Shown here: in pieces, positions 15,240 through 36,276 of the stretch
Numbering within the stretch: the stretch's first letter is position 1
How the letters are laid out: each line of letters starts with the position of its first letter
Origin: Polyangiales bacterium
GTDB lineage: Bacteria; Myxococcota_A; Polyangia; Polyangiales; Polyangiaceae
Reading direction: 5' to 3'
DNA: 59,037 nt
Assembly: GCA_038324055.1 (NCBI GenBank)
Contig: JBBQHO010000001.1
Location: 1-59,037 of the forward strand
Translations under genes and position numbers: made by a program
Notes under the pieces: model-generated
What the model was told of the DNA's origin: nothing
The model's input: the letters and a program-made list of their open reading frames with translations, nothing else
The model's database searches: none

Positions 15240-16996
15240 CCTGCCTTCGGTCCCAAGTCGTACAGGTGAGCGCGCAAGGGATGAGCGCTGGCGCCGTTGG
15301 CAATCGTCACCACGACATAGCGCGCTGGGTCGTCCGGCCGGACCGCCCCTTCTGGCGCGACGTGGGGAAGGGTCAGGCAAAGGGCACCTTGCGGGGCCGC
15401 CTTCACGTTGAGCGGCCGCGACTGTCCGGCATTGTCGAGCGTGGCGACGTAATGAAAGCTCGCCGCCGGGCGCAGTTCGCGGCGCCGCGCCCAGTCGGTT
15501 CCACAGAGCGAGCTGCCCCCGCGTACTTCCAGTTGAGCGAGCGGCGAGAGCACGAGCAGGTAGCGCTCGAGGATGCGCTGCAGGCGCCCTTGCAAGACGC
15601 GCGTCAAGTAGCTCTTGTGCGGCTCCTCGAACTTTCCGAGCTCGACGAAGGTATCGATATCTGCCCGCTCGAATCGCGCCAGGATGCGGGCCATCCAGGC
15701 GTTGTCGTGCTCGGTCGCGCGACTGAATGCCGGATTCGGGTACTCGTTCTTCCAGCCGTCGGGATCGAAATCGTAGGCGTGGAAGTACCCGAACATCTCT
15801 TCGCCCGGTGTGCGTTCGACCACGTCCCATCGTCGTCGCGGAATACCCAGGGTCACCAGATCCTGGGCGATATCAGCCCAATCGAGCAGATAGCTATGGC
15901 CGAGTCGCCGCGAGATGTCGTCCCAGACCCACTCGCTGCCCAGCGTGTCGCTGAAGTCCAAATAGTAGTGGCGCACGAAGCCTGGCGAGGAGTCTCCATC
16001 GTCGGGATTGGCTGCGATCCAGCTGTCCATCGAGTTCTGCTCGCGAGCATCGAAATGATCGACCCAGGCAGCCAACACGCGCGCTCCGCGGAGTTCGCGC
16101 CGGTCCTGGTGAGGAATGACGTCATTCGGATCGTCGGCGCGCGTGTCCTGATACGAAAACGGCCCAAGCAGATTGCCCTCGAGCCAAGCGCTGGCCTGCA
16201 TGCGCACCAGATCGCCTTTGCGTAGGCCGTTGTCGACGATTCTCTGCAGAGCCGCTTCGTCCAGTGGCTTGATTACGCCGCTGTTGTCAGTCGTCGTCAG
16301 GCCCGGCTTGAGCTTGAGAACCTTCGGATCGAAGTAGACGACTTGCTCGCACGAGGTGTTGAAACCCACCGCGTTGTAGATGGCCGCACCGATCACCGCG
16401 GCGGCGGAGCTCTTCGGACTCTTGTCGGACTTGAGCATGTACTTCTTGCCGCCGATCCGAACCCGAAAACCGGGAGTCGAGCCGTCGCTCTTGCCCTTGT
16501 CGACCAGCCAACTGGCGGTCTCGGCATTCTCGGGGTCGAGCATGTCCTCGGGCTCGCAGGCGCCGAGCGCCAGGGCCGCGGCACGTTCGGCGCCTTCTTT
16601 GCTCGGGCGGTTGGTGAACCAGGCGCTGTCGGGGACTTCGTCGAGAGCGTTGACGTTGACGGCCGCGCCTGGCGGATCGACCTTCCAGAAGCGCGAAAAC
16701 GGCAAGAAGATCGAATTGTCGACCGCGTCCCAGGCGAGCGGCGAGACGTAGGGCTCCGGGGTGCATGACTTCTCTTCCGCGGACTCACCATCGTTGCGCT
16801 GACAATTGGCCTGGTAGGCGCGCATGTCCGTGTCGACGAGCAGCGGAGCGCGCAGCGGAAAGCGCGGAGGCTCGGACGCACAGGCAGCCAGTAGACAAGT
16901 CGCGGCAGCAGCGGCAGCAGCCGCCGCCAGTCGTGGAGAGAGCCGCCCCGCGAGTACGGCTGAGCACCAACCGAAGCGATGGCGATTAGAAGTCAT
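15200..16996 (-). CDS. cassette A: ~598 aa lipoprotein with a putative protein-kinase-like core; paralog of 29863..31638
   Basis: The start at 16996 gives a poly-Ala signal peptide ending LLAAC (lipobox). Blocks shared with the paralog: RFPL, NVNALDEVPDSAWFTNR, DDPNDVIPHQDRRELR, WVDHFDAREQN, LDFSD, GYRLVGLERP. Confidence 0.8.
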   Translation of the reverse strand: MTSNRHRFGWCSAVLAGRLSPRLAAAAAAAAATCLLAACASEPPRFPLRAPLLVDTDMRAYQANCQRNDGESAEEKSCTPEPYVSPLAWDAVDNSIFLPFSRFWKVDPPGAAVNVNALDEVPDSAWFTNRPSKEGAERAAALALGACEPEDMLDPENAETASWLVDKGKSDGSTPGFRVRIGGKKYMLKSDKSPKSSAAAVIGAAIYNAVGFNTSCEQVVYFDPKVLKLKPGLTTTDNSGVIKPLDEAALQRIVDNGLRKGDLVRMQASAWLEGNLLGPFSYQDTRADDPNDVIPHQDRRELRGARVLAAWVDHFDAREQNSMDSWIAANPDDGDSSPGFVRHYYLDFSDTLGSEWVWDDISRRLGHSYLLDWADIAQDLVTLGIPRRRWDVVERTPGEEMFGYFHAYDFDPDGWKNEYPNPAFSRATEHDNAWMARILARFERADIDTFVELGKFEEPHKSYLTRVLQGRLQRILERYLLVLSPLAQLEVRGGSSLCGTDWARRRELRPAASFHYVATLDNAGQSRPLNVKAAPQGALCLTLPHVAPEGAVRPDDPARYVVVTIANGASAHPLRAHLYDLGPKAGYRLVGLERPGED

Positions 16997-18335
16997 ACGA
17001 CGACCCGATGGTGAGGCGCACGGAGTCGATCTGACCTCCAGTCTCGAAAGGATTGGACCCAAAGCCTAGAACTGCCTGGAACTCGGACTCGCCCGTGGTG
17101 CGGCTCTGAATCGCGAACGCCGCAGAATAGCGCAGCAAGCCTGGCCGAAATTCAGCTAGATGCTTGTCAAACACGTTGCCCATCTCGAAACGCAAGCTGC
17201 CGTCGAGCCAGACCCAGATGGGCCAGCGATAGGTCAGGCTGAGCGCCGCCGCGCTCCGACCGACCAGACGTCCAGCGTAAAAACCGACGAGCGCGTCGCT
17301 GTCGCCACCCAGCGCCACCAGCTCCGTGAACGGCACGACGGAGTTGCCGACTTCATCCACGAAGCGAGCGCCCGCAGCGAGCGACAACACGCGATGGTGG
17401 CCGTCCAAGTCCACGAAACCGCCCGCGATGCCTCCGTAGCGCACCCAGCTGCCCTGATTCTCGAGGTCAGCCGAATGTCGCAGATTTGCCTGCAGACGTA
17501 CTCCCGACGCGGGACGCTCCGGATTGCGCGTGTCGAGCACTAGACGCAATTCCGAGCGCGCTTCGGTGTAGCCGCGATCGATCAGCGCTGGCAGCGGAAC
17601 GCTCCCCGCGGCCAGCGCATTTTGCAGCGAAGGATCATCGGCGTCGCCCAGGCCTGGGCGGAAATTCACGTCGCGGAGCGCGACCTGCGCATTGAAGGTG
17701 CTCATGCGCCAGAAGCGATGATCAACCACGGCCCGCGCCTGCAACGTCTGCATGCCGTAGCGGAGCGCGTCACTTTGTCGCGTCAGCGGACCGGTCCCAA
17801 AATAGAGGTAGTCCGGTCGTCGCAGTAGCGAGACGTCCCAGCCGATACGATCAAGCGGGGTGTTGGAGTAGCGGTAGCGCTCCGCCGCGCCCAGCGAGAT
17901 CCAGTTGTTCCCGGAAAACGAAGCGCGTGCTCGCAAGTCGTGACCGCGAAAGCCTGCATCATCCCAGAAGGCGTACAGACCGAAGCTGGGTTGAAAGCCC
18001 GAGTCTGCGAAAACCGTCGGAAAAACGCCGGCTTTGTGATCCGGACCAAAAGCAAAGAAGTCGTAGAGCAACGCCGGCACGCCAGCTTGCTCCGCCCCCG
18101 AGATCAGCTTGCCCAGCGGCCAGCGAATCCCGTACTCAGTGACGACGTAGACGGGGAACAGGAGCACGCGCGGTATCCACAGCAACTTGCGGCCCGTGCT
18201 GTCGGGCAGTTCGCGACCGTCGTAGTCGGGCAGCTCGCGCTTCTCGACCGCGCGCGCCCGCGCAGATCCAAGTAGCGTCGCCGCCAAAACACACAGGCCC
18301 AGTGCTCGGCCGATTCCGTCACGATACTTGCGCAT
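16986..18335 (-). CDS. cassette A: Omp85/surface-antigen-type outer membrane beta-barrel without recognisable POTRA; paralog of 28169..29860
   Basis: Start MRKYRDGIGRALGLCVLAATLLGSARARA is a signal peptide. KRELPDYDGRE and WIPRVLLFPVYVVTEYGIRWP are shared with the paralog. Alternating-hydrophobic strands end in ...LTIGSSYDF, with a terminal Phe beta-signal. The stop overlaps the lipoprotein start by 11 nt. Confidence 0.8.
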   Translation of the reverse strand: MRKYRDGIGRALGLCVLAATLLGSARARAVEKRELPDYDGRELPDSTGRKLLWIPRVLLFPVYVVTEYGIRWPLGKLISGAEQAGVPALLYDFFAFGPDHKAGVFPTVFADSGFQPSFGLYAFWDDAGFRGHDLRARASFSGNNWISLGAAERYRYSNTPLDRIGWDVSLLRRPDYLYFGTGPLTRQSDALRYGMQTLQARAVVDHRFWRMSTFNAQVALRDVNFRPGLGDADDPSLQNALAAGSVPLPALIDRGYTEARSELRLVLDTRNPERPASGVRLQANLRHSADLENQGSWVRYGGIAGGFVDLDGHHRVLSLAAGARFVDEVGNSVVPFTELVALGGDSDALVGFYAGRLVGRSAAALSLTYRWPIWVWLDGSLRFEMGNVFDKHLAEFRPGLLRYSAAFAIQSRTTGESEFQAVLGFGSNPFETGGQIDSVRLTIGSSYDF

Positions 18336-18623
18336 TGCGGCCTCGCAGCATCTGCCAGGGCGCGGGGAGATGCAATGAAAGCCGAACGCGTTGCGTCGCA
18401 CGCGCGACGTAGCCGCTGGGGCTCACGTTCGATTGATCAGCGGGTCGGTGTGGCAAGATGCCACGATGCGCACTGGCTTTGCTCCGTTCGTGACCCGCTG
18501 CCATCCCCTTGATGAATTGACAACGCGCAACGCGCGCCCAACGCTCGGCGCACACATCTGGCACCGCTCTCGATTCGTCACCTCCGAGCTTGGCTCCTGC
18601 CTTGCGTCGCACTTTTCACCAGC

Positions 18624-20264
18624 GTGGTGAGTTCGAGCGCGGCGCGCGCCCGCGACAGCGCTGCGTCCCCCACGCAGCTGGCGCAGCTGGCGATGGCTCC
18701 CGGTTTTCGCAAGCTTCTGCACTACCATGGGACCCTCTTCGGCGGGCTCGAAAGCCAAGTCGACGACCCGAGCTTTTTTCTGGCCGCGACCGGTGCGACG
18801 GATCCAGAAGCGGAGCTTTCCGCGCTCGTCCGCGCCATGCGAGAGCCAGCGTCGAACAAGCCGAACGAAGATGTTCGCTGCCGTTTTCCCGCGCGTGTGG
18901 CTTGGCTCGCCGAACAAATGCCGCTACCTGCGCACGCTCCAGCCAACTGCCCCGAACAAAGCGCTTTCTTGCAGCGCGTGCAGGCCGACAGTTTGTCGCT
19001 GGTTTACGCGTCGAGCTCGCTCGACTACCCCGCGTCCGCTCTGGGTCACACTTTCTTGCTGCTGCGACCGCGTGACGCCTCCGCGGAGCAGGGTACTTCG
19101 ATTGACTACCGCGCGCGCGTCGACACGAAGAACCCCCTGCTCTACGCGTTCAAAGGTTTGACGGGCTTGTTCGTCGGTCGCTTCGAAATTTTGCCGGAAG
19201 AAAAGAAGCTGTGGAACTTGCTCGAAGAGCAAAAGAGAGACCTGTGGGAGTTCGAGCTCTCGCTGAGCCCGAGTGAGCTCCAGCTGTTTCTGCTGCACCT
19301 GTGGGAACTGTCGCGCGCGGAGATCGACTACTTCTACTTGACCGAGAACTGCAGCTACCATGCGCTCGAAGCGCTCGAAGCCGCTGCTCCTCGGCTTTCG
19401 CTCGTCGAGCAGACCAAGTTCGTCGTCCTGCCCATCGACACCGTGCATGCGGTCGTGCGCGCGCCCGGCCTGGTCAAGCGAACCAACTACTTCCCCTCCA
19501 GAACGACGCGCAAACGCGACACCGACCCAGGCGAAACCGTGCCCGCGCCGCTCCAACCGGCCTTTCCACGGCCGCTGCGCTCCCCCGCTCACAGCCACGG
19601 GCCGATGCGCGTGAATTTCGGCACCGGGCTCAGCTCAGAAAAGGGTGCATTCGGCAGCCTCGGCTTCCGCCTCACGCTCCACGACCTGCTCGATCCCCCG
19701 CAAGGCAACCCCGAACTCGTGCAGGTCCAGTTGCTCAGCATGACCGTGCGCTACTCGCCTTTGCCCAGCAGCTTCACGGTCGACGACGTGACTTTCGTCG
19801 ATCTATGGGCGCTCAACACGCTCGACTCCCCGTCGCCGTTGGCGTGGCGCATCCGCGCGCTTGGCAACCGTGTCCGAGACCGCAGCTGCCCGTCGGGCGA
19901 CTGCTTCGTCCACGGCCTCGACTTCGGCCTAGGTACCGCAGTGGCCACGCGCAGTCGCTCACTCGCACTTTTCGCCATGGCTACTAGCTCAGTCGTCTTC
20001 TCGGACGCCATCTCGGGCATCGATGGCAGCTTCGTTCGTTGGACCGCTGGGCCCCAACTCGGGCTACGGGCACGCCTGGGTTCGCGCTCCGTCGCGCTGA
20101 TCAGCGGTCGCTGGAGCTATCTGCCTTGGCAATCTGTCGAAACGACATTCGATCTGACGGGACAGGTGCGCGCCGGCTTGTCGAGCGACGTCGCGCTGGG
20201 TGTCGAAGGCCGCGTTCAACCGAGCGCCTACGAAGCCAGCCTCTCGTCGTTCGTCTACTTCTGA
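18624..20264 (+). CDS. DUF4105 (Lnb N-terminal domain-like) protein with beta-barrel-like C-terminal half
   Basis: Contains GHTFLLL and YFYLTENCSYH, remembered as DUF4105 signatures. C-terminal alternating strands end in SSFVYF. The frame is open upstream to 18516 and encodes a signal-peptide-like LRAWLLPCVALFTSVVSSSAARA with no ATG/GTG/TTG, so the true start is uncertain. Confidence 0.8.
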   Translation: MVSSSAARARDSAASPTQLAQLAMAPGFRKLLHYHGTLFGGLESQVDDPSFFLAATGATDPEAELSALVRAMREPASNKPNEDVRCRFPARVAWLAEQMPLPAHAPANCPEQSAFLQRVQADSLSLVYASSSLDYPASALGHTFLLLRPRDASAEQGTSIDYRARVDTKNPLLYAFKGLTGLFVGRFEILPEEKKLWNLLEEQKRDLWEFELSLSPSELQLFLLHLWELSRAEIDYFYLTENCSYHALEALEAAAPRLSLVEQTKFVVLPIDTVHAVVRAPGLVKRTNYFPSRTTRKRDTDPGETVPAPLQPAFPRPLRSPAHSHGPMRVNFGTGLSSEKGAFGSLGFRLTLHDLLDPPQGNPELVQVQLLSMTVRYSPLPSSFTVDDVTFVDLWALNTLDSPSPLAWRIRALGNRVRDRSCPSGDCFVHGLDFGLGTAVATRSRSLALFAMATSSVVFSDAISGIDGSFVRWTAGPQLGLRARLGSRSVALISGRWSYLPWQSVETTFDLTGQVRAGLSSDVALGVEGRVQPSAYEASLSSFVYF

Positions 20265-26315: not shown

Positions 26316-27158
26316 TCAGTCCGTCGCCCAGAGCCAGCGCATGCTGACTTCGAGCACGTCCCCGCCGATGCGGCCCAGAAAATCTGGACTGCTCACCACA
26401 GGCAAGATGCTGGTGCGCACCTGGAACTCGTCGGACAAGAGCCAGCGCACGTGCAACCCTGCCCGCACGATGCCGACCTGGCGCTCTGCGAGCCAGACGA
26501 TTTCAACGGTGGGCGACACGCCGATGTTGGTCCCACGAAGGAAGAACTCGACGCCGAGCCGTTGGCGGAGAGTGAGTCCGGAACCGATCACCACCGCCAT
26601 CGTGTCGAGATAGAGGTTGTTGTCCTCCGGAAATCCGAAGGCGACGATCGGCTGCGTCTCCGAACGCAACTTGAGCGGCCCCAGCGGCAGGTAGAGTTCG
26701 AGTTGGCTGTCCCACAGCCAGTATTGGGCGCGCGGACCTTCGAGGATGTCGATGTCGCGGCGCGTGTAGCTGTCCTTGGCCGTCAAGTACGAACGATTGA
26801 ACGAGAACTGGTAGAGCGCGCCCGAGCGGAGCTCGAACAAGCCGCGCTCGATCCGGCCGCCCATGTAGCCGCCCAGGGCGCTGGTCGAAAGGATGGGTAC
26901 AGCGTCCAGACCGACCCATTCGTAGTGCGGCTTGCCCCAGCCCGCCGAGATGCGTGGGCGCAGAAAGAAAAAACCTGCGTCGAGGCGAGAAGCGACGAAC
27001 CAGCGATCGGTCGAGTTTCGCCAACGGCTGCCCGGCGGGGAGCCGAGCGGGTTGTCCGCAGAGTCACCGGGGCCCGTCGACAGGCCTTGAGCGTGCGCGG
27101 GCATCGACACGAGCAAGACGAATACAAGGACCGAAATCCACGAGAGCAGCGCCCGCAT
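26316..27158 (-). CDS. secreted beta-barrel-like outer membrane protein (280 aa)
   Basis: Start MRALLSWISVLVFVLLVSMPAHAQG is a signal peptide. Alternating amphipathic strands follow. Its ATG shares 1 nt with the PAP2 stop (TGATG). The upstream part of the 399 aa ORF is an overlap artefact. Confidence 0.7.
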   Translation of the reverse strand: MRALLSWISVLVFVLLVSMPAHAQGLSTGPGDSADNPLGSPPGSRWRNSTDRWFVASRLDAGFFFLRPRISAGWGKPHYEWVGLDAVPILSTSALGGYMGGRIERGLFELRSGALYQFSFNRSYLTAKDSYTRRDIDILEGPRAQYWLWDSQLELYLPLGPLKLRSETQPIVAFGFPEDNNLYLDTMAVVIGSGLTLRQRLGVEFFLRGTNIGVSPTVEIVWLAERQVGIVRAGLHVRWLLSDEFQVRTSILPVVSSPDFLGRIGGDVLEVSMRWLWATD

Positions 27159-28147
27159 CACCAGACCCCGCTGACCAACACGCCTTGAGGAGTGGGTAGA
27201 ACGTTGAAACTGACGCCGCTGATGGGCGAGTGCGGTGTCCAGCTGCCGATACCGTAGTGGAGCGCGGGCACGAGGAAACCGATCGTGGTGCCGACTGCTG
27301 CGCCCACGAGGACATCGGACGCGTAGTGCATGTCGCCGATCACGCGTAGACCGGCTGTTGCCGCGGCGCCGACGAAGCCGCTCAGGCACGGAATCCACGC
27401 TTGCCCATTGCTCAGCGGAATGGCCGAATGATGAGCGCAGGTCACGGCGGCCAACGCGAACGTAGCGGCCGAGTGGCCGCTGAAGTGGCTGAGGTAGCGG
27501 TCGTTCGTGATGCAAAACGACGAACGCTCGTCGAGTTCATTCGTGCCACACGTACGGCCGTAGGGGCGTTCGCGCGCGATCCCATGGGCCGCCAGCTGCT
27601 GGACACCCAAGGTGAGCGCCATGACTTCAACATCCAGCAGGGCAATTTCGGCACCGACGTCTGGGCTCTTTCGTAGCCAGGTGGCGTTGATCAGTGCGTC
27701 GCCGATGAAGGCGTAAGACATCGAAAATCCGAGCAAAACGTCGCTGGCGTCGCGAACGGCCAGTTGGGTAGTGTAATCGGTGGCACGCACTGCATCCCGC
27801 ACATCTTCGTCGAACAACACGCCGCCACGCGGCCCGAACTCGCGGTTGGGGCCTACAATGATGGAAACGAGCGCAGTTGCGCCACCCAGTCCGGTGACGA
27901 TGAGATCGGGGACGCCGAAGCGCGCGGCTGCGCTCGGGTAAACGACGGGAGCGAGGCTGCCCGGTCGGAGAATGATCTTGCCATCGGGATCGCCACCTGG
28001 AGTCGTCTTGCCCGTGGCGAGCGCTGGCTTGAACGGAACAACAACGGAAGGCTCGGCGTCCGCGGCGCGCGCGCAATCGATGCCAGCGATGCTTGGTACG
28101 AGCGACAGCCCGAGGCAGACGCAGGTGCTGGAGAAGAGGGAGCGCAC
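27158..28147 (-). CDS. PAP2-superfamily phosphatase, exported/membrane
   Basis: PAP2 motifs RERPYG (KxxxxxxRP-like), SHFSGHSA (PSGH) and RVIGDMHYASDVLVGA (SRxxxxxHxxxD). GTG 28147 gives the signal peptide MRSLFSSTCVCLGLSLVPSIAG. The ATG at 28330 would overlap the divergent gene. Confidence 0.8.
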   Translation of the reverse strand: MRSLFSSTCVCLGLSLVPSIAGIDCARAADAEPSVVVPFKPALATGKTTPGGDPDGKIILRPGSLAPVVYPSAAARFGVPDLIVTGLGGATALVSIIVGPNREFGPRGGVLFDEDVRDAVRATDYTTQLAVRDASDVLLGFSMSYAFIGDALINATWLRKSPDVGAEIALLDVEVMALTLGVQQLAAHGIARERPYGRTCGTNELDERSSFCITNDRYLSHFSGHSAATFALAAVTCAHHSAIPLSNGQAWIPCLSGFVGAAATAGLRVIGDMHYASDVLVGAAVGTTIGFLVPALHYGIGSWTPHSPISGVSFNVLPTPQGVLVSGVW

Positions 28148-28168
28148 GAGGAATGAAACCTGAGATGG

Positions 28169-29860
28169 ATGAGCGTCGTGATTGACTCGATGGGGCGTTC
28201 GATGTTGCCTGAGGCCGTGGCGGTCGTGTTGCGCTGGTTCTGGTCGTATCTCGTCGTCGTTGGCTTCGCCGTGCCTGCGGCTCGCGCCCAAGAACGAGTC
28301 GTCCCACCCACGCCCGCCGAGGATGGACAAGATGACCTCCCGGCGCCAGCACCAGTGCCCGTGACTACGGAGCCTCGGGCGGAGCTGCCAGAAGCGGACC
28401 CTCCGTCACAAAAGCCCAACCCTGCGACGCCCGATAGGGCTCCCGACGCGCTGCCCGTCGAGCCCCAGGACGACCTCCGGACGGCCCTGGCCGACGTCGA
28501 GCAGACAGGGTCACCCCCCCAGCCCCCCGCGGAAGGAACCAGCGAGCCGGCCAACGAAAAGGACCTGCCTCCCGAGCAAAAGCGCGAGCTGCCGAACTAC
28601 GATGGCCGCGAGGCGCAGCAGACCGACGCGGGCGACATCGTGCGCTGGATCCCACGCGTAGCGCTCTACCCCGCGTATCTATTTCTCCAGTACGGCATTC
28701 GGACGCCGACAGTCTGGGCAATCGCAAAGGTGGAAGAGACGCATCTGGCCGACAAGGTCACTGACTTTTTCACTTGGGACGAAGGCCAAGCTTACGCGTT
28801 TCCAGTCGCGACCTTCGACTTTGGCTTGCGACCCAACGTAGGGGCGATCTTCCACTGGACCGAGATGATCCCGCGCCACGATTTCGCAGCCACGTTCTTT
28901 GCGGGGCCCGGAGACCTGTGGGCGACCGGCGCGCAAGTCGATCAGAAACTGTTCCGCGACGAAGGCGCGCTGATCCGTTGGCGCGGTGGCTACGTGCGGC
29001 GACCCGACAACCCGTTCTTTGGCGTCAGCGATCTGAGCGCTCGCTGCAATCAGCTGGACTTCGGCTGCCGCTACCGCAGCGCCATCGCCGAAGCCAGCGT
29101 GAGCCTGGTGGGTTGGGAGAAGCAGCTGAACAGTCTCAGCTTCGGTACGACGTTTCGGCACGCCCGTTTCTCGACGGAAGAAACGGACAATCCGCCACTC
29201 ACGCCCACCGAAACCGCCGCCCTGCCCGCCTTCACGAATGGCTACCAGATCCTGCAGCCCGAGCTGAATTTCACTATCGACAACCGCCACGAAGATCTCG
29301 ACTTCGCGCGCGGCACGGGCTTGCGACTCGAGGGGCTCACCTCCTTCGCCGTCGACGTGCAGGAACCCAGCAGGCGCTGGTTTCGTGCTGGTGGCCAACT
29401 CGCTGCGTTCTACGACTTGGGCTTCGGTCAGATCTTGTCGACGAGTCTGTACTACCAAGGTGTACTCAATGTGAGCCGGCTCGAGGGCAGCACATCGACG
29501 CGCGCGCCCATCCCCTTCTACGAGCTGCCGTTCTTGGGTGGCCAAGACCAGATGAAGAGCTTCTTGCGACGACGCCTCATGGGCGCCAATGCCTGGGCTG
29601 CCAACTTCGAGTACCGCTACCCGATCAGCTGGGGTCTGGATGCGGCTTTGTTTTCGAGCATCGGCAACACCTACGACGATCTGCGTGAGTGGAATTTGGT
29701 CAAGAGCTACCTGAACTACGGCTTGGGATTGAAGCTGGCTACCGATCGTGTCTCGGCCTTCGAGGCCGTCGTCGGTTGGGGCTCCAATCGTCTCGACGAG
29801 GTCCGCTTCGATCCTTTCGATCAGTTCCGCTTGGCCTTCGGAGTCAGCAGGGGGTTTTGA
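28169..29860 (+). CDS. cassette B: Omp85/surface-antigen-type beta-barrel with Pro/acidic-rich N-terminal extension; paralog of 16986..18335
   Basis: Signal peptide ...VVVGFAVPAARAQ (the start may be 28190 or 28202). A ~110 aa Pro/Glu/Asp linker follows, then KRELPNYDGRE, WIPRVALYPAYLFLQYGIRTP, FLGGQDQM-type Omp85 loop and C-terminus RLAFGVSRGF. Confidence 0.8.
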   Translation: MSVVIDSMGRSMLPEAVAVVLRWFWSYLVVVGFAVPAARAQERVVPPTPAEDGQDDLPAPAPVPVTTEPRAELPEADPPSQKPNPATPDRAPDALPVEPQDDLRTALADVEQTGSPPQPPAEGTSEPANEKDLPPEQKRELPNYDGREAQQTDAGDIVRWIPRVALYPAYLFLQYGIRTPTVWAIAKVEETHLADKVTDFFTWDEGQAYAFPVATFDFGLRPNVGAIFHWTEMIPRHDFAATFFAGPGDLWATGAQVDQKLFRDEGALIRWRGGYVRRPDNPFFGVSDLSARCNQLDFGCRYRSAIAEASVSLVGWEKQLNSLSFGTTFRHARFSTEETDNPPLTPTETAALPAFTNGYQILQPELNFTIDNRHEDLDFARGTGLRLEGLTSFAVDVQEPSRRWFRAGGQLAAFYDLGFGQILSTSLYYQGVLNVSRLEGSTSTRAPIPFYELPFLGGQDQMKSFLRRRLMGANAWAANFEYRYPISWGLDAALFSSIGNTYDDLREWNLVKSYLNYGLGLKLATDRVSAFEAVVGWGSNRLDEVRFDPFDQFRLAFGVSRGF

Positions 29861-29862
29861 GC

Positions 29863-31638
29863 ATGTCCACGCCACAACGAACCGCAACGCGAACCTGGCT
29901 CGGTGTGTGTCTCTTGTTCTCGCTCGCCTGTAGCCGCGAAGTGCGCCGCTTTCCCTTGGCACCGCCGCTGTGGAGCGACGCGGACCAGCGACCGCTCGCC
30001 GAACAGCCCGACGACTACTATTCCGGCATCCGCGCTGACGCAGTCGACAAATTATTGCTCTATCCGCTCAGCAACATCGCCTCTCTCCCCCGTGACGGCG
30101 AGGCCCTGAACGTCAACGCCCTCGACGAAGTCCCCAACAGCAGCTGGTTTCAGAATCGCGTGGGTGTCTTTGACTACACGCCCGCGCAGATTGCCCGCGC
30201 AGAATGCGGCGACACGCCCGAACTCGATCCTGCAAACGGAAAGTGGTTGGTGGTCAACGCCAAGCCCGACGGCGCGAACCCAGGGTTTTTCATCAAAGCG
30301 CCAGACGGACACCGCTACCTGCTCAAGTTCGACGGCAAGAGTCAGCCGTTGCGCGCCTCCACCGCTGATGTCGTCGGATCCAAGCTGTATTGGGCTCTCG
30401 GCTACCATTCGGTCTGCAACGAAGTCGTCTACTTCGAGCCAGACAATTTAGTGATGGCGAAGGGCGCCATCACCAAGACCGCGCTGGGCGAAGAGCGACC
30501 GATGACCCAGAACGACATCGCCACCGTCTTGGCCCAGGGTTTTCGCCTCAAGGATGGCCGTGTGCGCGCATCGGCCAGCCGCTTCGTCCCCGGCAAGCCG
30601 CTCGGTCCATTCAAATACGAAGGCACTCGCTCCGACGATCCAAACGATGTGGTGCCGCACGAGGATCGCCGCGAGCTCCGCGCTGCGCACTTGCCCGCGG
30701 CTTGGATCAACCACATCGATGCGCGCGAGCAGAACACCTTCGACGTCGTAGTCGAAGAAGCGAAGCGAAAGTTCATTCGTCACTACATGATCGATTGGGG
30801 TGACTCCCTGGGCATCGGTTTCAATCCCGATCGCTTGGCACGACGCTTCGGGCACTCCTACGCCATCGATTTCGAGCAAATTGCTGAGGATTTCGTCAGT
30901 TTTGGTCTGCTGAAGCGACCGTGGCACGACCCCCACCGCAGCAAGGTGCAGATCTTTGGCTACTACGCCGTCGATGGTTTCGTGCCTTCGGAGTGGCGCG
31001 GCGTCTACTCGATTCCCGCGTTCAGCAAGCGCACACCAAATGACGTCTCGTGGATGACGCGCATCATGTCGCGTGTCACCGACGCGCACATCCAAGCCAT
31101 TGTCGCCCGCGCCAAGCTGCCCGACGAGCGCCAGTCGCTCTACCTGGAACGAGTGCTCATCGGCCGACGCGACAAGTTTTTCGAAGAGTATTTCTCCAAG
31201 TACCTGCCGCTCTCGGGATTTCGGATGGCCCGGCGTACGCCGGGCGAGACAAAGCAGTCTCTCTGTTTCGAAGATCTCGGCATCCAGCATGGGGTATCCA
31301 AGGCGTTCGAGACCTACTACCAGCTACGCTTTCGCGGCGGACTCGACCTGGAAAAGGAACTCGGTTGGGTGCAGTTCATGCCCGACGCAAAGCATCCGAC
31401 CTGGGCGTGCGTCGTGCTGCCCCTGGGCGACGTGCGCCCCGCGCAACTGGCCGGTGATGGCGCCTACGACGACGATCCGCGGAGGTACGGAGTCATGGAC
31501 CTCTGGGTGCACCAAAAGCCCACCGTACTACCCATGGGTCAGGTCCGGCTCCACTTCTACGATCTCGGCGAGAGCCGTGGCTATCGCTTGGTGGGCATCG
31601 AACGGCCTCGCGAAGTTCGCGTCCCGCTGGACTACTGA
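29863..31638 (+). CDS. cassette B: ~591 aa lipoprotein with a putative protein-kinase-like core; paralog of 15200..16996
   Basis: MSTPQRTATRTWLGVCLLFSLAC contains a lipobox. The ATG lies 2 nt after the barrel stop. Motifs: GANPGFFIK, RYLLKFD, WINHIDAREQN, MIDWGDSLG, GYRLVGIERP. Confidence 0.8.
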   Translation: MSTPQRTATRTWLGVCLLFSLACSREVRRFPLAPPLWSDADQRPLAEQPDDYYSGIRADAVDKLLLYPLSNIASLPRDGEALNVNALDEVPNSSWFQNRVGVFDYTPAQIARAECGDTPELDPANGKWLVVNAKPDGANPGFFIKAPDGHRYLLKFDGKSQPLRASTADVVGSKLYWALGYHSVCNEVVYFEPDNLVMAKGAITKTALGEERPMTQNDIATVLAQGFRLKDGRVRASASRFVPGKPLGPFKYEGTRSDDPNDVVPHEDRRELRAAHLPAAWINHIDAREQNTFDVVVEEAKRKFIRHYMIDWGDSLGIGFNPDRLARRFGHSYAIDFEQIAEDFVSFGLLKRPWHDPHRSKVQIFGYYAVDGFVPSEWRGVYSIPAFSKRTPNDVSWMTRIMSRVTDAHIQAIVARAKLPDERQSLYLERVLIGRRDKFFEEYFSKYLPLSGFRMARRTPGETKQSLCFEDLGIQHGVSKAFETYYQLRFRGGLDLEKELGWVQFMPDAKHPTWACVVLPLGDVRPAQLAGDGAYDDDPRRYGVMDLWVHQKPTVLPMGQVRLHFYDLGESRGYRLVGIERPREVRVPLDY

Positions 31639-31720: not shown

Positions 31721-33127
31721 TCAGCCGGCCGTAGCGGGCTCTTTGCCGGGCTCGTCACCGGCCGATTTCGTGCGTTCCGCGTAGGCCTTGCCCAAGCGGA
31801 AGGCGACCCACAACCAAACCGCGACCAAGGCAGCGTTGACCGCGGCAAACAAGGACAAGGGTGCGTGCAGCCAACGCAGGCCTACGAACACCAGGCCGGC
31901 GCTGAACACGTCGCCAGCTCGCACGAAGATCGTGTCGACGACCTGCTTGGCCTTGTACTTTTCTTCGGCGGTGAGCGGTAAGAACAGCGCGTTGCGCACC
32001 GTGTTGTTCAGCGAATAGTCAAAAGCGTTCTCGGCCGTCTTGGCCCAGCGCACGGTCCAGAGCACCGGAAGGAACGCCACCCCAAGATAGCCGAACAACG
32101 CTACAGCGGGCAGAACGAGCAGCGCTACGCGAACGCCCAGATGGCGGATGAAGCGTGGCGCGATGACGAGTTGAATGAAAGCACCCAGCAAGTTCACCCA
32201 AAAATAGAAATTCGAGTAAAACTGCCCGATCCAGACCTTGACCTGGTCCCCACTGACGACGCGCGCCGCTTGTTCCGAAGCGAAGCTGCCCAGCAAGAAC
32301 TCACCCGTGGTGTTGACCAAGTTGCTCAGCAACATGAGCACGCCGATGAGCCGCAGGTAGGGGCTCTGGATGACGAGCTGGAACGCGCCAGCGCCGCTGT
32401 TCGTCTCCTTTTCCGCCTCCTGCTTCTTCTTGCTCTCGGGGCCTTCCTCGACCGCTTTCGCTGCGCGTGCGCTGAAGTACTCCGACGCCAACGTCAGCAG
32501 CAGCGCTCCGATCAAGAGGACGCCGCTCACCAACAGCATCTGCGGCACACCTAGCGGGCCGACGAGTAGGCTGGTCAGCTCGCTACCCGCTACCGCTCCC
32601 GACGAAGCGCCGAAAGCCACGATCGGAAACAGACGTTCGCCCTGCTCGCGCGAGTAGAGATCACTGGCAAAGGCCCAGAACTGCGCCACCACCATCAGAT
32701 TGAAGATGCCGACCCAGAGGAAAAACACGATCCCAAGTCCAGGCATTTGCGCTTTGGCAGCGAAGTAGAACGCCACCAGGCAGCCGACGAAGATGAACGT
32801 GACCGTGCGAATCAACTTGGCGCGGTCGAAGTGATTCACCAGCCACGAGTAACCGGGCACGATCAACGCCAGCAGCACCACCTGGCCGACCGCCGCATAG
32901 CTTTTGATCTCGGCTCCTCCACCCGACAGAATCAACGCTTCACGCACGGGCTTGAGCACGTAGTAAGCGCACAAAAGCAGACAGACGTTGAGTGCGAGTA
33001 ACAGCGCAGACGCGCCCTCTCCCCTCCGCACGATGGTCAGGAGGCCGAGTGCGCGATCGATCCAAGAGAGCGACGCCGAGTCTTTGGAAGGCTCGGCCGC
33101 TTTGCTGTCCGTCATGCCCTCAGGCAA
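31721..33127 (-). CDS. TLC-family (ATP/ADP translocase-like, Npt-type) MFS transporter
   Basis: About 12 TM helices. YYVLKPVREALIL and VAQFWAFASDLYSREQGERLFPIVAFGASSG resemble the TLC signature (QFW.FAN.I...EEAKRFYPLFG). The start could be 33127 or 33115. Confidence 0.8.
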   Translation of the reverse strand: MPEGMTDSKAAEPSKDSASLSWIDRALGLLTIVRRGEGASALLLALNVCLLLCAYYVLKPVREALILSGGGAEIKSYAAVGQVVLLALIVPGYSWLVNHFDRAKLIRTVTFIFVGCLVAFYFAAKAQMPGLGIVFFLWVGIFNLMVVAQFWAFASDLYSREQGERLFPIVAFGASSGAVAGSELTSLLVGPLGVPQMLLVSGVLLIGALLLTLASEYFSARAAKAVEEGPESKKKQEAEKETNSGAGAFQLVIQSPYLRLIGVLMLLSNLVNTTGEFLLGSFASEQAARVVSGDQVKVWIGQFYSNFYFWVNLLGAFIQLVIAPRFIRHLGVRVALLVLPAVALFGYLGVAFLPVLWTVRWAKTAENAFDYSLNNTVRNALFLPLTAEEKYKAKQVVDTIFVRAGDVFSAGLVFVGLRWLHAPLSLFAAVNAALVAVWLWVAFRLGKAYAERTKSAGDEPGKEPATAG

Positions 33128-33488
33128 CCATGACGAACGAGCCCGTCAAAGCGGTCGCAGTCACAATCGCAAAGCACACCTGCTTGAGCCCCCGGGCGCG
33201 CACCGACCTGAGCTCGGCGGTGTTGGCGATGCGCTCACTGCCGCAACCCGTTTGTCGGAAGCCAGCCCATGCAGAAAAGCCACAGGTCTGAAACATGCCC
33301 TGAAAAAAGCCGTTGGCCGAAAGGAAGAACGGCACCAGCAAGACCCAGCGCAGGCTAGGGCTCGCGCCACTCCGCTCCAAGGTGACAGCCAGAGCCAAGC
33401 CCAGGCCCAGGGCCACAATGCCGAACCTGAGGCGTCGCGCCACATTGACGTCGGCCAAGTTGCCAGCGAGTTCGTTTCCGGAAGCCAT
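33120..33488 (-). CDS. small membrane protein (DUF2892/YgaP-like, weak)
   Basis: NVARRLRFGIVALGLGLALAV and FFQGMFQTCGFSAWAG resemble the DUF2892 pattern. The start could be 33488 or 33524. Its end overlaps the TLC gene start. Confidence 0.5.
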   Translation of the reverse strand: MASGNELAGNLADVNVARRLRFGIVALGLGLALAVTLERSGASPSLRWVLLVPFFLSANGFFQGMFQTCGFSAWAGFRQTGCGSERIANTAELRSVRARGLKQVCFAIVTATALTGSFVMVA

Positions 33489-33540
33489 AGCTACTACTGT
33501 AGCCAGAGCGAAAGGGGCGCGCATCCCCCCCTCCGAGTCG

Positions 33541-36276
33541 ATGCCTCAGGCCAGCAGCTTTCCCGCCCGGACCAGTTCACGTCCGCCAGCAACTCCCGGA
33601 TTTTGGCAACGTTTTGCCGACGTTCGCCCGGGCGAGGGCTGGCTGGTGGCGGGCGCGTGCGTGGTTTTGGGCGGGATCGTGGGCGCGCACGTGCTGCTCG
33701 AGACCGCCCGGGACGCCCTTTTTCTAACTAAGCTGAAACCGAGCGCCCTGTCCCTGGTCTACATCGCCATGGCGGTCCTGGGCTTCGTGACCGCGCGCGC
33801 CGACCAAATGGTCAGTCGCGTGTTCGGTCGAAAGAACGCCCTCGTTCTGGCGCTCATGGTCGCCTCGACCGGCACGTTGCTTTTTTACACGAGCACCATC
33901 GGCAAGGCTGGTGCGTTCGCGCTGTACCTATGGGCGGGCGTGATTGGCACGCTGCTGACGGTTCAATTCTGGCTCACTGCGGCGCAGCGCTTCACGCCCG
34001 GACAGGGGCGGCGCATCTACGGTCTTTTGTCGGCCGGAGGCGTTCTGGGCGCAGTGATCGGCGGCGTCATCGGTGCGCTGTTGGCGCAAGGGCTGTCCGT
34101 GAAAAGCCTGTTGCCTGCATCGGCGGCAATGCACTTGCTTACTGCGTTGGTCGTGACTTTCGCGCCACCCGCGACCGAGCTTGCGCCAGCGCCCGAAAAG
34201 GCAAAAGTCGGCGCAGAGATCCGAGCGGTTCGCTCGAATGCCTACCTCGCACGCGTCGGCATTCTGATTCAGCTGTCGGGCGCGACGCTGCTCATCGTCG
34301 ACTACTTGTTCAAGTCCGTGATGGCCACCCGGCTGCCGCCCTCCGACCTCGGCATCTACCTGGCGCGTTACTACGCCATCATGAATGCCGTCGCGCTGAT
34401 CGTGCAGGTGTTCGTCACCATGCAGGTGCTGCAGCGCATGGGCACCATTTTGGCGCTCACCCTGTTACCCTTGTGTCTGCTCTTGTCCGGAGCGGCTGGT
34501 TTGTTCTTCGGAACGGCGATGTTGGCGGTACTGCTCGCCAAGGGTTCGGACGGCGCCCTACGCTTTTCACTGCATCGCGTCTCGACCGAGCTGTTGTTCC
34601 TGCCACTGAGCAACGAGGAGCGTACCAAGGCCAAACCCTTGTTCGATTCGGTGCTGGCGCGCGGTACTCAGGCCCTCATTGCGGTCGTGATCCTGGTTCT
34701 CAATCAGTTTCACCTCGCCAGCAACAACGTCCTGGGGACCTTGATCGCCAGCCTGTCGCTGCTGTGGATTCTGGTCGCCTGGTCACTTCGCGCACCTTAC
34801 TTGGAGCGCTTTCGCTCGACGCTCGGTGGCCAGGCGCGCGCTCGTTCGTTCGAGCTGCTGCAACTGAATCTCGACAGCGTAGTCGTGTTGGTTGAAGCAC
34901 TGTCGAGCCCGGACGAAAATCGAGTGATTGGCGCCATGAGTCTGTTTCACGAAGGGCGTCGCAGCAATCTGATTCCTGCGCTGGTGCTTTACCACCCAAG
35001 CCCGCGCGTGCTGGCTCGCGCGCTCGAGGTCATTCCTGCGCCCGGACGGAAAGATTGGGTTCCGCTCGCAGAGCGATTGCTGCAGCACGACGACCGCGAA
35101 GTCCGACTCGCTGCCATCCGCGCCCTGGGCTCGAGCGGCTACATGGACCGCATCGATCCTTCGGCGTTCTCGGATATGGCGGGGCTGCGCGCCACGGCCG
35201 CCTTCTTCGTGGCCGGCCAGTCCGCAGTTCCTCGCAACGAAACTTCTGTTGCCGAGTTCTTGGCCGAGGACGCCGACCCCCAGGGGCAACTGGCCCTACT
35301 CGAAGCCATCAGCAAGCTTGGCACGGCGCGCTGGGCCGACGTCGTGCTCGAACTCCAGAAGCGCGGGCGCCGTGAACTCGATCGCGTGTTGCCACTCGCA
35401 ATGGCTCGCACTCGTGACTTACGCTTCGTCCCGCTACTCATTCAGCGCCTGGCTCATCGGGAGGGCCGCAATGAGGCGCGTGAAGCTCTCGCGGCGCTTG
35501 GCGCTCCCGCGCTCGAAGCGCTCCGTTCCGCTCTTGACGATCGCACGACCGATCCGGCCGTACGCCTGCACATTCCCCGCGCTATTTCACGTTTTGGTTC
35601 GCACTCCGCGGGCGAGATGCTGGTCCACATGCTGTCGCAGGACCTGCCGGGCGCCGTACGCTACAAGGCACTGCGCGGCTTGGGCCGCGTGGTGTCGACC
35701 AGCGATTTCTCCGTCGATGCAGCGCGTATCCTGCCGGTGATCGAGCAGAACCTGGTTGAGTACGCGCGCATCGAGATGTCGCTGCGCATCTTGGGTGAGC
35801 GCGCCGGCCCCACGCCTTTGAGTGGCGTCCTGTTCTTCGGGCTACTGGCAGACAAGCGGCGCCAGGCGCTCGAACGCGCCACGCGCCTGTTGCAACTTCT
35901 CCACCCGCGCGAGGATCTGCGCCGGGTCTACTACGCGCTCTTGTCGGACGAAGGCTCCAATCGCGTGGCCGCCGCCGAAATTCTCGAAGTCACGAGCCTG
36001 GGCTACGGTGAGACGCTGCGGAGCCTGTTGCGCGTCGCCGCCGAGCCGCGCCAAGACCTGGCCCCCCTCGAAAGCTACGCCAGCGCGCTTTCCATTCCGG
36101 TGCCGCACGAGGTGGATACGCTCCGAGAGCTGATGGCCAATGCCGATCCGCTCGTTTCGGCCTTGGCCGCGTCCTACGCCATGGAACTCGAGAACAGCGA
36201 ACTCGCATCTGCCATCGAAGCTGCCACCAGCTGCAATGCGTGGCTGATCGAACACTCCAACGCGAGCATGCGATGA
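33541..36276 (+). CDS. TLC-like MFS transporter fused to a C-terminal HEAT/ARM-repeat domain
   Basis: The N-terminal half has multiple TM helices, with LLETARDALFLTKL and TVQFWLTAAQRFTPGQGRRIYGLLSAGG (TLC-like). The C-terminal ~480 aa has HEAT-like units (DDREVRLAAIRALGSSG, DPAVRLHIPRAISRFG, VRYKALRGLGRV). The Arg-rich extension from 33313 was rejected. Confidence 0.8.
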   Translation: MPQASSFPARTSSRPPATPGFWQRFADVRPGEGWLVAGACVVLGGIVGAHVLLETARDALFLTKLKPSALSLVYIAMAVLGFVTARADQMVSRVFGRKNALVLALMVASTGTLLFYTSTIGKAGAFALYLWAGVIGTLLTVQFWLTAAQRFTPGQGRRIYGLLSAGGVLGAVIGGVIGALLAQGLSVKSLLPASAAMHLLTALVVTFAPPATELAPAPEKAKVGAEIRAVRSNAYLARVGILIQLSGATLLIVDYLFKSVMATRLPPSDLGIYLARYYAIMNAVALIVQVFVTMQVLQRMGTILALTLLPLCLLLSGAAGLFFGTAMLAVLLAKGSDGALRFSLHRVSTELLFLPLSNEERTKAKPLFDSVLARGTQALIAVVILVLNQFHLASNNVLGTLIASLSLLWILVAWSLRAPYLERFRSTLGGQARARSFELLQLNLDSVVVLVEALSSPDENRVIGAMSLFHEGRRSNLIPALVLYHPSPRVLARALEVIPAPGRKDWVPLAERLLQHDDREVRLAAIRALGSSGYMDRIDPSAFSDMAGLRATAAFFVAGQSAVPRNETSVAEFLAEDADPQGQLALLEAISKLGTARWADVVLELQKRGRRELDRVLPLAMARTRDLRFVPLLIQRLAHREGRNEAREALAALGAPALEALRSALDDRTTDPAVRLHIPRAISRFGSHSAGEMLVHMLSQDLPGAVRYKALRGLGRVVSTSDFSVDAARILPVIEQNLVEYARIEMSLRILGERAGPTPLSGVLFFGLLADKRRQALERATRLLQLLHPREDLRRVYYALLSDEGSNRVAAAEILEVTSLGYGETLRSLLRVAAEPRQDLAPLESYASALSIPVPHEVDTLRELMANADPLVSALAASYAMELENSELASAIEAATSCNAWLIEHSNASMR

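Follow-up and report, generated by a model that had tools for sequence, protein, structure and literature searches.

A 59,037-nucleotide stretch of DNA from a Polyangiales bacterium (assembly GCA_038324055.1, contig JBBQHO010000001.1, positions 1 to 59,037; hereafter the window) encodes two exported lipoproteins, A and B, whose cores are modelled as a protein-kinase-like (PKL) fold with intact active-site residues. Each is translationally coupled, as read from the gene junctions, to an Omp85 outer-membrane barrel without POTRA domains. The window has a G+C content of 64%, and its closest named relatives belong to the Polyangiaceae/Myxococcota. We give roughly even chances to the reading that these lipoproteins are envelope-located, catalytically competent HipA-like phosphotransferases that work with their Omp85 partners. 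Such an Omp85-coupled or NTT-linked lipoprotein kinase appears to have no earlier description. A preliminary description, made by a model from the DNA letters and translations, had pointed out a kinase-like HxDxxxxN...D signature on both lipobox lipoproteins and asked which phosphoryl donor and substrate an enzyme in that location could use. The two lipoproteins and their principal sites are given here, with residues numbered as in the protein concerned.

29863..31638 (+): lipoprotein B, 591 residues, with signal peptide and lipobox, conserved N-terminal linker, predicted HipA-like kinase-fold core (~128-446) and C-terminal beta-sandwich
29863..29931 (+): signal peptide and lipobox of B, MSTPQRTATRTWLGVCLLFSLAC, Cys23 (SLAC/S)
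about 30109..30159 (+): N-terminal linker motif of B, NVNALDEVPNSSWFQNR, residues 83-99
30265..30333 (+): glycine loop and Lys strand of B, PDGANPGFFIK...RYLLKFD (G137, G141, K155, D157)
30634..30675 (+): family-defining invariant motif of B, DDPNDVVPHEDRRE (D259, D262, H266, R269, R270)
30712..30804 (+): catalytic-type loop of B, HIDAREQN (H284, D286, N291), beta-hairpin and metal-binding-type IDWGD (D311, D314); translation HIDAREQNTFDVVVEEAKRKFIRHYMIDWGD
31210..31602 (+): C-terminal immunoglobulin-like (Ig-like) beta-sandwich of B with the covarying pair C468/C516
15200..16996 (-): lipoprotein A, 598 residues, paralog of B
15947..16057 (-): catalytic-type loop of A, HFDAREQN...YLDFSD; translation HFDAREQNSMDSWIAANPDDGDSSPGFVRHYYLDFSD

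Lipoproteins A and B are paralogs with 36% identity across 582 residues (E=3e-104). Their open reading frames (ORFs) are listed as 29689..31638 (+) and 15200..17062 (-), and the starts used here are the first Met ahead of the signal peptide. The signature reads exactly as first noted, as HIDAREQN-(17 residues)-MIDWGD in B and HFDAREQN-(23 residues)-YLDFSD in A; the spacings of 19 and 25 residues quoted for it are right for the interval between the Asn and the second Asp, and the upstream strings GANPGFFIK...RYLLKFD and GSTPGFRVR...KYMLKSD are both present in the respective ORFs. A regular expression for the signature, H.D....N.{15,30}D[WF][GS]D, matched only lipoproteins B and A in the six-frame translation of the window, against an expectation of 0.0 in 100 shuffles, or 0.01 for a looser version.

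Conservation was counted in an alignment of 271 diverse homologs, in the numbering of lipoprotein B. The export signals noted for A and B recur throughout this alignment. Both proteins begin with a signal peptide and a lipobox (...ATCLLAAC/A in lipoprotein A); the lipobox Cys is aligned in 227/271 homologs, a PROSITE-like core is fitted by 193/221, the median position of the Cys is 21, and the +2 residue is mostly A, G or S. This is the signature of a signal peptidase II-type lipoprotein, and lipidation is predicted from it. Two pairs of Cys residues covary almost perfectly: C115/C185 (both present in 186 homologs, neither in 80, a single one in 5) and C468/C516 (both in 203, neither in 64, a single one in 4). 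Such pairs point to disulfides and hence to an oxidising compartment.

The residues expected of a kinase active site are conserved across the same homologs. The glycine loop retains G137 in 257/271 and G141 in 258/271, the Lys of strand beta3 (K155) is kept in 259/271 (96%), and an acidic residue of helix C (D/E169) in 246/271 (91%). In the catalytic loop, H284 is found in 241/271, D286 in 266/271 (98%) and N291 in 261/271 (96%), followed by H307 in 269/271 and the metal-binding-type D311 in 267/271 (99%). The K, H, D, N and D positions on which the preliminary description depended are thus all conserved, and D314, the last Asp of its motif, is less constant (185/271). Mean column identity in a 117-sequence subset of the alignment (A2) is ~30%. 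The strongest conservation in the family lies in a motif that the preliminary description does not mention, D259-P-N-D262-x3-H266-x2-R269-R270-E, in which five positions are invariant (271/271), above even the catalytic loop. It lies directly before the helix that runs into that loop (model confidence 61-71 as predicted local distance difference test, pLDDT), and equivalent residues are present in lipoprotein A. Metal, phosphate or substrate binding and contact with the barrel are candidate roles for it. The N-terminal linker motif is likewise well kept (W95 in 259/271, R99 in 261/271), has a pLDDT of <50 at residues 83-85, and may be where the Omp85 partner docks.

This pattern bears on a reading in which the protein has a kinase fold and no catalysis, as a pseudokinase or as a scaffold that binds a nucleotide or another ligand; its role would be that of a structural accessory or plug for the Omp85 barrel, much as BamD or LptE have for theirs. 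The activity is a predicted one, the pseudokinase Fam20A is among the structural matches described below, the best-conserved motif is not a catalytic kinase motif, and pairing with the barrel is the most constant feature of the family. However, Lys, catalytic Asp, Asn and metal-binding Asp are retained at 96-99% against the ~30% mean column identity, a pattern typical of active enzymes, and pseudokinases usually lose at least one of these residues. We regard the non-catalytic reading as improbable.

An AlphaFold2 model of lipoprotein B, built from a 33-sequence alignment (pLDDT 84.5, predicted template modelling score (pTM) 0.86), places these residues in the order seen in kinases. Strand 128-134 leads through the glycine loop to strand 141-145 and then to strand 151-155, which ends at K155; helix 164-179, bearing D/E169, and further N-lobe strands follow, so that the loop, the beta3 Lys and the helix-C acid lie where a PKL N-lobe has them. 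The catalytic part is modelled as helix 276-281, the loop with H284, D286 and N291, a hairpin (292-299/302-309) and then D311, which is the PKL succession of a D-x4-N loop, a hairpin and an Asp. A helical C-lobe extends to ~446, and a separate beta-sandwich (~450-580) ends the model, with Foldseek matches to Asf1, the Sec63 unit of Brr2 and the Kir C-terminal domain. When the model was compared with the PDB by Foldseek, the top 11 matches were all atypical protein-kinase-like enzymes (Fam20C, CtkA and Fam20A; probability 0.96-1.00). Fam20C (4kqb) gave the lowest E-value (2e-4), and CtkA of Helicobacter pylori (3akk/3akj) followed at E=4.8e-4 to 8e-4 with a probability of 1.00 and a template modelling (TM) score of 0.49-0.52 on the target; PI4KIIa and VPS34 ranked lower.

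Independent support comes from sequence profiles of the homologs. Among 85 diverse members scanned one by one against Pfam at E<=10, HipA_2 (10/85 members, best E=7.9e-4) and HipA_C (6/85) were the sole families matched more than once, and the remaining 22 Pfam families had one match each. The HipA matches are collinear: residues ~134-232, the N-lobe part with the glycine loop, Lys strand and helix C, correspond to model positions 4-92 (of 240) in HipA_2 and 5-87 (of 213) in HipA_C. HipA matches were absent from an initial sample of 10 members scanned singly and came up in a second sample. Best scores stayed under the gathering cutoffs (19.2 vs 27 bits for HipA_2, 12.5 vs 30.5 bits for HipA_C), which makes the family a remote relative of HipA and not a member. 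The D-x4-N...D spacing of 19 residues in the family is also close to that of HipA (K181, D309, N314 and D332). The Fam20C and PI3_PI4_kinase models matched none of the 85 members at E<=10, and with Foldseek TM-scores of 0.19-0.38 the family does not belong to the Fam20 or PI3K/PI4K groups. Searches of PDB sequences with the single protein and with 33- and 117-sequence profiles returned nothing significant; the best profile match, to CtkA (E=0.26), covered the C-terminal helices only and was gone with the broader profile. The placement in the PKL superfamily by order of elements, as made in the preliminary description, is therefore borne out in the model, and the nearest relatives lie in the HipA/CtkA branch, not among the eukaryotic protein kinases or APH/choline kinases that it gave as examples.

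The lack of any significant Pfam or PDB sequence match for the window proteins themselves is what could speak for a coincidental motif in an unrelated fold. The motif, however, is confined to the two paralogs where chance would give 0.01 occurrences, the 271 homologs conserve it, the order of secondary structure is kinase-like with kinases as all top Foldseek matches, and the recurrent HipA matches are a separate line of sequence support. A chance motif is effectively excluded, and we consider coincidental resemblance highly improbable.

The family is large and has no name of its own. Pfam and NCBIfam scans of both window lipoproteins gave nothing at E<=1 save one spurious YfaZ match, and searches of Pfam, NCBIfam and the literature yielded no model, name or description of the family, the KINtaro catalogue and InterPro lying outside the direct comparison. 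A word-indexed search retrieved 1,295 homologs; among the best 120 of these, every displayed source name was 'hypothetical protein' and 0/120 carried a precomputed Pfam domain. When 1.84 billion cluster representatives were searched exhaustively with a profile, at least 3,579 clusters scored E<=1e-3, and 1,065 scored E<=1e-30. Relatives are encoded at 573 loci among one-genome-per-species assemblies, and the best 80 of these loci are nearly all from Myxococcota (Polyangiaceae, Labilithrix, Sandaracinus, Kofleriaceae, Myxococcaceae, Bradymonadales), together with two Terriglobia and one Krumholzibacteriia. They include three complete Sorangium genomes. Cultured hosts are available in Sorangium cellulosum So0157-2 and Sorangium spp. 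So ce176 and So ce1128 (loci L028, L032 and L033).

In both window copies, the gene directly upstream of the lipoprotein encodes the barrel.

28169..29860 (+): Omp85 barrel B, without POTRA, with a Pro-rich N-terminal extension; 30% identical to barrel A (E=2e-35)
16986..18335 (-): Omp85 barrel A, 449 residues from MRKYRDG (listed ORF 16986..18401), a modelled 16-strand BamA/TamA-like barrel with N-terminal helices 46-94

The stop codon of barrel B lies 2 nt ahead of the lipoprotein B ATG, with AGGGGG just upstream, and the genes of the other pair overlap by 11 nt, with the lipoprotein A ATG inside the end of the barrel A gene. The window barrels themselves fall under Pfam thresholds; most homologs of barrel A carry a precomputed PF01103 match, and some are named 'BamA/TamA family outer membrane protein' by NCBI. 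The AlphaFold2 model of barrel A (pLDDT 84.5) has 16 long strands, and its Foldseek matches are BamA and TamA barrels (BamA 7nre at E=1.4e-10, TamA 4c00; range E=1e-10 to 1e-9). Before strand 1 the model contains only helices 46-94 and no POTRA domain, and the absence of POTRA from a 16-strand barrel of ~450 residues places it in the 'noNterm' Omp85 class (PMC4104836, PMC11358297), a class of the Heinz and Lithgow 2014 classification. The three helices (LLWIPRVLLFPVYVVTEYGIRWPLGKL...) are conserved and partly hydrophobic, stand where other Omp85 proteins carry POTRA, and may serve to plug the barrel, to anchor it in the membrane or to dock the lipoprotein. Barrel B has a Pro/Glu-rich low-complexity extension of ~130 residues (28169..28600 (+)) that barrel A lacks and that gave a spurious weak GltJ match. 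The listed ORF of barrel B runs into the start of the divergent PAP2 ORF, and probably at least one of the two is drawn too long at its start; the Met at 28202 is a likely start of barrel B.

The pairing holds well beyond the window. Among 80 genome loci, 58 had adequate flanks, and 50 of the 58 encode a barrel homolog within 3 kb of the lipoprotein gene. The barrel gene is directly upstream on the same strand in 55/68 cases, mostly with a gap of -50 to +130 nt. Barrel type also tracks lipoprotein type (Spearman rho=0.74, n=67), and an A-type lipoprotein was never seen with a B-type barrel; the correlation fits inheritance as a unit, and shared phylogeny contributes to it.

Three loci depart from the simple pair. 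Two show local duplications: at L034:6920-11425 (+), one barrel is flanked by two lipoprotein copies, and at L038:11742-14865 (-), two tandem barrel genes stand beside a single lipoprotein. At L012:715-3604 (+), barrel and lipoprotein frames run on with no stop between them (...AIDLLVAWG/MTTLRPLALTVVLAAGC...) and the final ~23 barrel residues are gone; this locus is a single short contig of a metagenome-assembled genome, in which a natural fusion or deletion and an assembly error are both conceivable, and we did not use it as evidence.

A pairing this tight and near-universal could also mean that the barrel without POTRA is a dedicated translocon, in the style of two-partner secretion (TPS) or Slam, for a surface-displayed or released kinase effector that phosphorylates prey, host or matrix molecules. 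Secreted CtkA and Fam20C are among the closest structural relatives, the conserved low-confidence N-terminal linker could thread through the barrel, and many of the hosts are Myxococcota, a group that includes predatory species. In Leptospira, noNterm Omp85 genes are followed by lipoprotein genes, and some of these lipoproteins are reported to be surface-exposed (PMC11358297). The extracellular dome of noNterm barrels nevertheless speaks against protein transport (PMC11358297), the barrels have neither a TPS nor a POTRA domain to take up a passenger, and an inner-membrane nucleotide exchanger would not by itself bring ATP to the cell surface. We judge a translocated effector unlikely.

The other genes around lipoprotein B are as follows.

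31721..33127 (-): MFS transporter of TLC/NTT type, resembling ATP/ADP translocases, convergent with the lipoprotein B gene
33313..36276 (+): transporter with a TLC/NTT-HEAT fusion, transcribed divergently from the TLC gene above
27158..28330 (-): phosphatase of the PAP2 superfamily, N-terminus signal-like, divergent from barrel B
26316..27158 (-): 280-residue ORF with a signal peptide, beta-rich, ATGA overlap with the PAP2 gene

The first transporter scores 58.4 bits against the Pfam TLC cutoff of 21 and matches PDB entry 9j3n, 'ADP,ATP carrier protein 1' (E=2.7e-8); the fusion scores 38.1 bits against the same cutoff, also matches MFS_1 and HEAT_2, and recurs in related loci. Synteny of the transporter and PAP2 genes was counted in 47 loci whose flanks reach 6 kb or more; in 27 of them the lipoprotein has a TLC homolog no further than 6 kb away, often in one operon with it. 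In an unbiased neighbour census of 81 loci, the TLC cluster ranked first (40/81). At locus L081 the genes form an apparent operon of Omp85 (518 residues), lipoprotein (589 residues) and MFS/TLC transporter (451 residues) with gaps of 3 and 22 nt, and in distant metagenomic loci, whose lipoproteins are 30-35% identical, the genes also run in one direction, with Omp85 first, then the lipoprotein and TLC, and in some cases TLC-HEAT after them. The preliminary description had left the phosphoryl donor as a question, and the TLC/NTT genes beside lipoprotein B and in 27/47 homolog loci offer a concrete candidate for its supply. NTTs of free-living bacteria, including 33 deltaproteobacterial sequences and an NTT-HEAT clade, are uncharacterised (PMC5381601).

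Further recurrent neighbours in the census were Pkinase (17 loci), cyclic nucleotide monophosphate (cNMP)-binding proteins (11), PAP2 (11) and sigma-54 response regulators (10). Genes for Ser/Thr kinases of the Pkinase family and for sigma-54 activators are very abundant in Myxococcota, and we judged these neighbours to be background for that reason. Genes for cyclic nucleotide-binding domains lie directly downstream of some NTT-HEAT fusions (PMC5381601), a published linkage that the cNMP-binding genes at 11 related loci fit. PAP2 (Pfam E=5.4e-11 for the window copy) occurs within 6 kb in 8/47 loci and is accessory, in a minority of loci; the pair of PAP2 and the 280-residue ORF, which has no Pfam or NCBIfam match, recurs beside the lipoprotein in L038, L058, L062 and L066. 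No helix-turn-helix antitoxin of HipB type was found among the lipoprotein neighbours (Omp85, TLC, PAP2). Pair A is flanked by a cation-efflux gene and, divergent from barrel A, by a gene at 18624..20264 (+) that combines Lnb_N (a lipoprotein N-acyltransferase-like periplasmic domain) with DUF7840 and DUF7843; neither is a partner, with 0/80 related loci having them nearby, and the missing Lnb_N gene makes its adjacency to barrel A look incidental. Elsewhere, at L129:5867-6754 (+) and alike at L141, a polyphosphate kinase 2 (PPK2) gene lies just upstream of TLC and TLC-HEAT transporters, with the lipoprotein absent; PPK2 is a further enzyme of nucleotide-phosphate chemistry encoded next to such transporters.

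With TLC as the top recurrent neighbour, the locus could instead be a nucleotide-scavenging module, in which the barrel admits nucleotides or nucleosides, the lipoprotein binds or phosphorylates them, and the NTTs import the products. PAP2 and PPK2 genes near some TLC genes would suit it, and every characterised NTT imports nucleotides (PMC5381601). Against this stand the phosphoryl donor that nucleotide phosphorylation in the periplasm would itself require, the roughly 40% of loci without a nearby TLC gene, and the nature of HipA/CtkA-type kinases, which are protein kinases and not nucleotide kinases. A dome, moreover, normally closes barrels of the BamA type, which are not known to act as solute channels (PMC11358297). 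We think scavenging quite unlikely.

Under the favoured reading of an envelope phosphotransferase, each lipoprotein would be an exported, lipid-anchored enzyme with a distant HipA/CtkA-type PKL core and an Ig-like beta-sandwich. It would be co-transcribed with its 16-strand Omp85 barrel, which lacks POTRA and may act as its partner at the outer membrane, either retaining the lipoprotein there or moving it, or its conserved N-terminal linker, across the membrane. Because the glycine loop, K155, D/E169, D286, N291 and D311 are all retained, we infer that it is most likely a working nucleotide-dependent phosphotransferase, whose substrate would be an envelope or extracellular molecule: a protein by analogy with HipA and CtkA, although the analogies with PI4K, Fam20B and PAP2 would allow a lipid or glycan. 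An NTT/TLC antiporter homolog, present at about half of the loci and often accompanied by an NTT-HEAT paralog, may exchange cytoplasmic ATP for periplasmic ADP; the direction of antiport follows gradients, and an NTT could thus supply the phosphoryl donor, presumably ATP. PAP2, where present, may act on the same phosphorylated, possibly lipid, substrate.

Several observations weigh against this reading. On the side of the enzyme, Foldseek E-values are modest (1e-4 to 1e-3) and TM-scores low (0.25-0.5), which indicates similarity at the level of fold only and not close similarity. The placement of K, D, N and D follows the order of elements in the model; all matches to Pfam kinase models stay under the gathering scores; and an hhalign comparison of the family profile with one Escherichia coli K-12 HipA sequence gave no match (probability 0.6%). 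The best-conserved motif, DDPND..H..RRE, is no canonical kinase motif, and the lipoprotein may face either the periplasm or the cell surface. On the side of the donor, the two window transporters score 47.9 and 33 bits against the cutoff of 387 for the NCBIfam NTP/NDP exchanger model TIGR00769, so far below it that their substrate is uncertain. A TLC gene within 6 kb is missing from 43% of loci, and window pair A has no TLC neighbour. Reverse synteny is weaker: among 14 TLC-anchored loci with flanks of 4 kb or more on each side, 5 carry the lipoprotein, and where it is missing the transporters have varied neighbours, none of them another exported kinase. This partly positive reverse synteny and the varied neighbours indicate that the transporter family is broader than the lipoprotein system.

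The fullest form of the proposal is a dedicated extracytoplasmic ATP economy in Myxococcota and some other diderms. In it, an NTT-type antiporter would export ATP and retrieve ADP, fuelling an outer-membrane-anchored HipA-like kinase that is docked to an Omp85 barrel without POTRA and phosphorylates an envelope or surface protein, lipid or glycan, with PAP2 sometimes as eraser. We put this forward tentatively, as a possible but doubtful scheme. By the established view, ATP is not available in the Gram-negative periplasm, and envelope processes draw their power from the inner membrane or from donors other than ATP, as when LpxT uses undecaprenyl pyrophosphate. Exported lipoproteins with a full set of kinase active-site residues, linked to an ATP/ADP-translocase homolog, challenge the picture of an ATP-free periplasm in a testable way. 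If true, the scheme would describe the first system of phosphorylation driven by ATP in the periplasm or outer membrane of Gram-negative bacteria, and three orphan classes would gain functions together, namely the NTTs of free-living bacteria, the noNterm Omp85 barrels and the lipoprotein family itself. It also provides concrete hypotheses for the NTTs of free-living bacteria (PMC5381601) and for Omp85 barrels without POTRA (PMC11358297).

Compared with known systems, the lipoproteins come closest to the HipA/CtkA kinases (PF07804, PF20613; CtkA 3akj/3akk). CtkA gives the best TM-score, HipA_2 and HipA_C are the sole recurrent sequence matches, and the layout of glycine loop, xxLKf Lys strand, D-x4-N loop and an Asp ~19 residues further on is the same. 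CtkA also occurs outside the cell. Unlike these kinases, the lipoprotein family has a lipobox, two predicted disulfide pairs, a conserved N-terminal linker of ~100 residues, the invariant DDPND..H..RRE motif and an Ig-like domain at the C-terminus. Its genes are paired with that of an Omp85 barrel rather than with a HipB-type antitoxin, and stand in no toxin-antitoxin context.

Both window transporters exceed the Pfam threshold of the NTT/TLC family (PF03219), which comprises the ATP/ADP antiporters of plastids, Chlamydia and Rickettsia, and the NTT-HEAT architecture of 33313..36276 matches a widespread uncharacterised clade (PMC5381601). They differ from the antiporters in falling far under the NCBIfam exchanger cutoff and in belonging to a free-living host, where import of host ATP makes no sense. 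For the barrels, the nearest parallel is the noNterm Omp85 group of Leptospira (LIC12252/12254/12258), which are 16-strand proteins without POTRA, of unknown function, with a lipoprotein gene directly downstream (PMC11358297, PMC4104836). The barrels described here share this architecture and gene order; however, the Leptospira partners are adhesin-like (DUF1566, Big/integrin) and not kinase-fold proteins, and the barrel here has an N-terminal helical segment in which no DUF5982 match was seen.

The Fam20 kinases (Fam20C, Fam20A and Fam20B) differ from the lipoproteins as eukaryotic Golgi proteins that are not lipoproteins and have no barrel partner, and they show TM-scores of 0.22-0.38 and no sequence similarity to the family, although they provide its lowest Foldseek E-value (2e-4). 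Fam20-type kinases, and the bacterial CotH kinases, work outside the cytosol, are stabilised by disulfides and receive ATP through a dedicated membrane transporter. With Fam20C, CotH and CtkA known as kinase-fold enzymes outside the cytosol, the kind itself is not new, and the extracytosolic ATP supply of the Fam20 kinases follows the same logic as that proposed here for the lipoprotein family.

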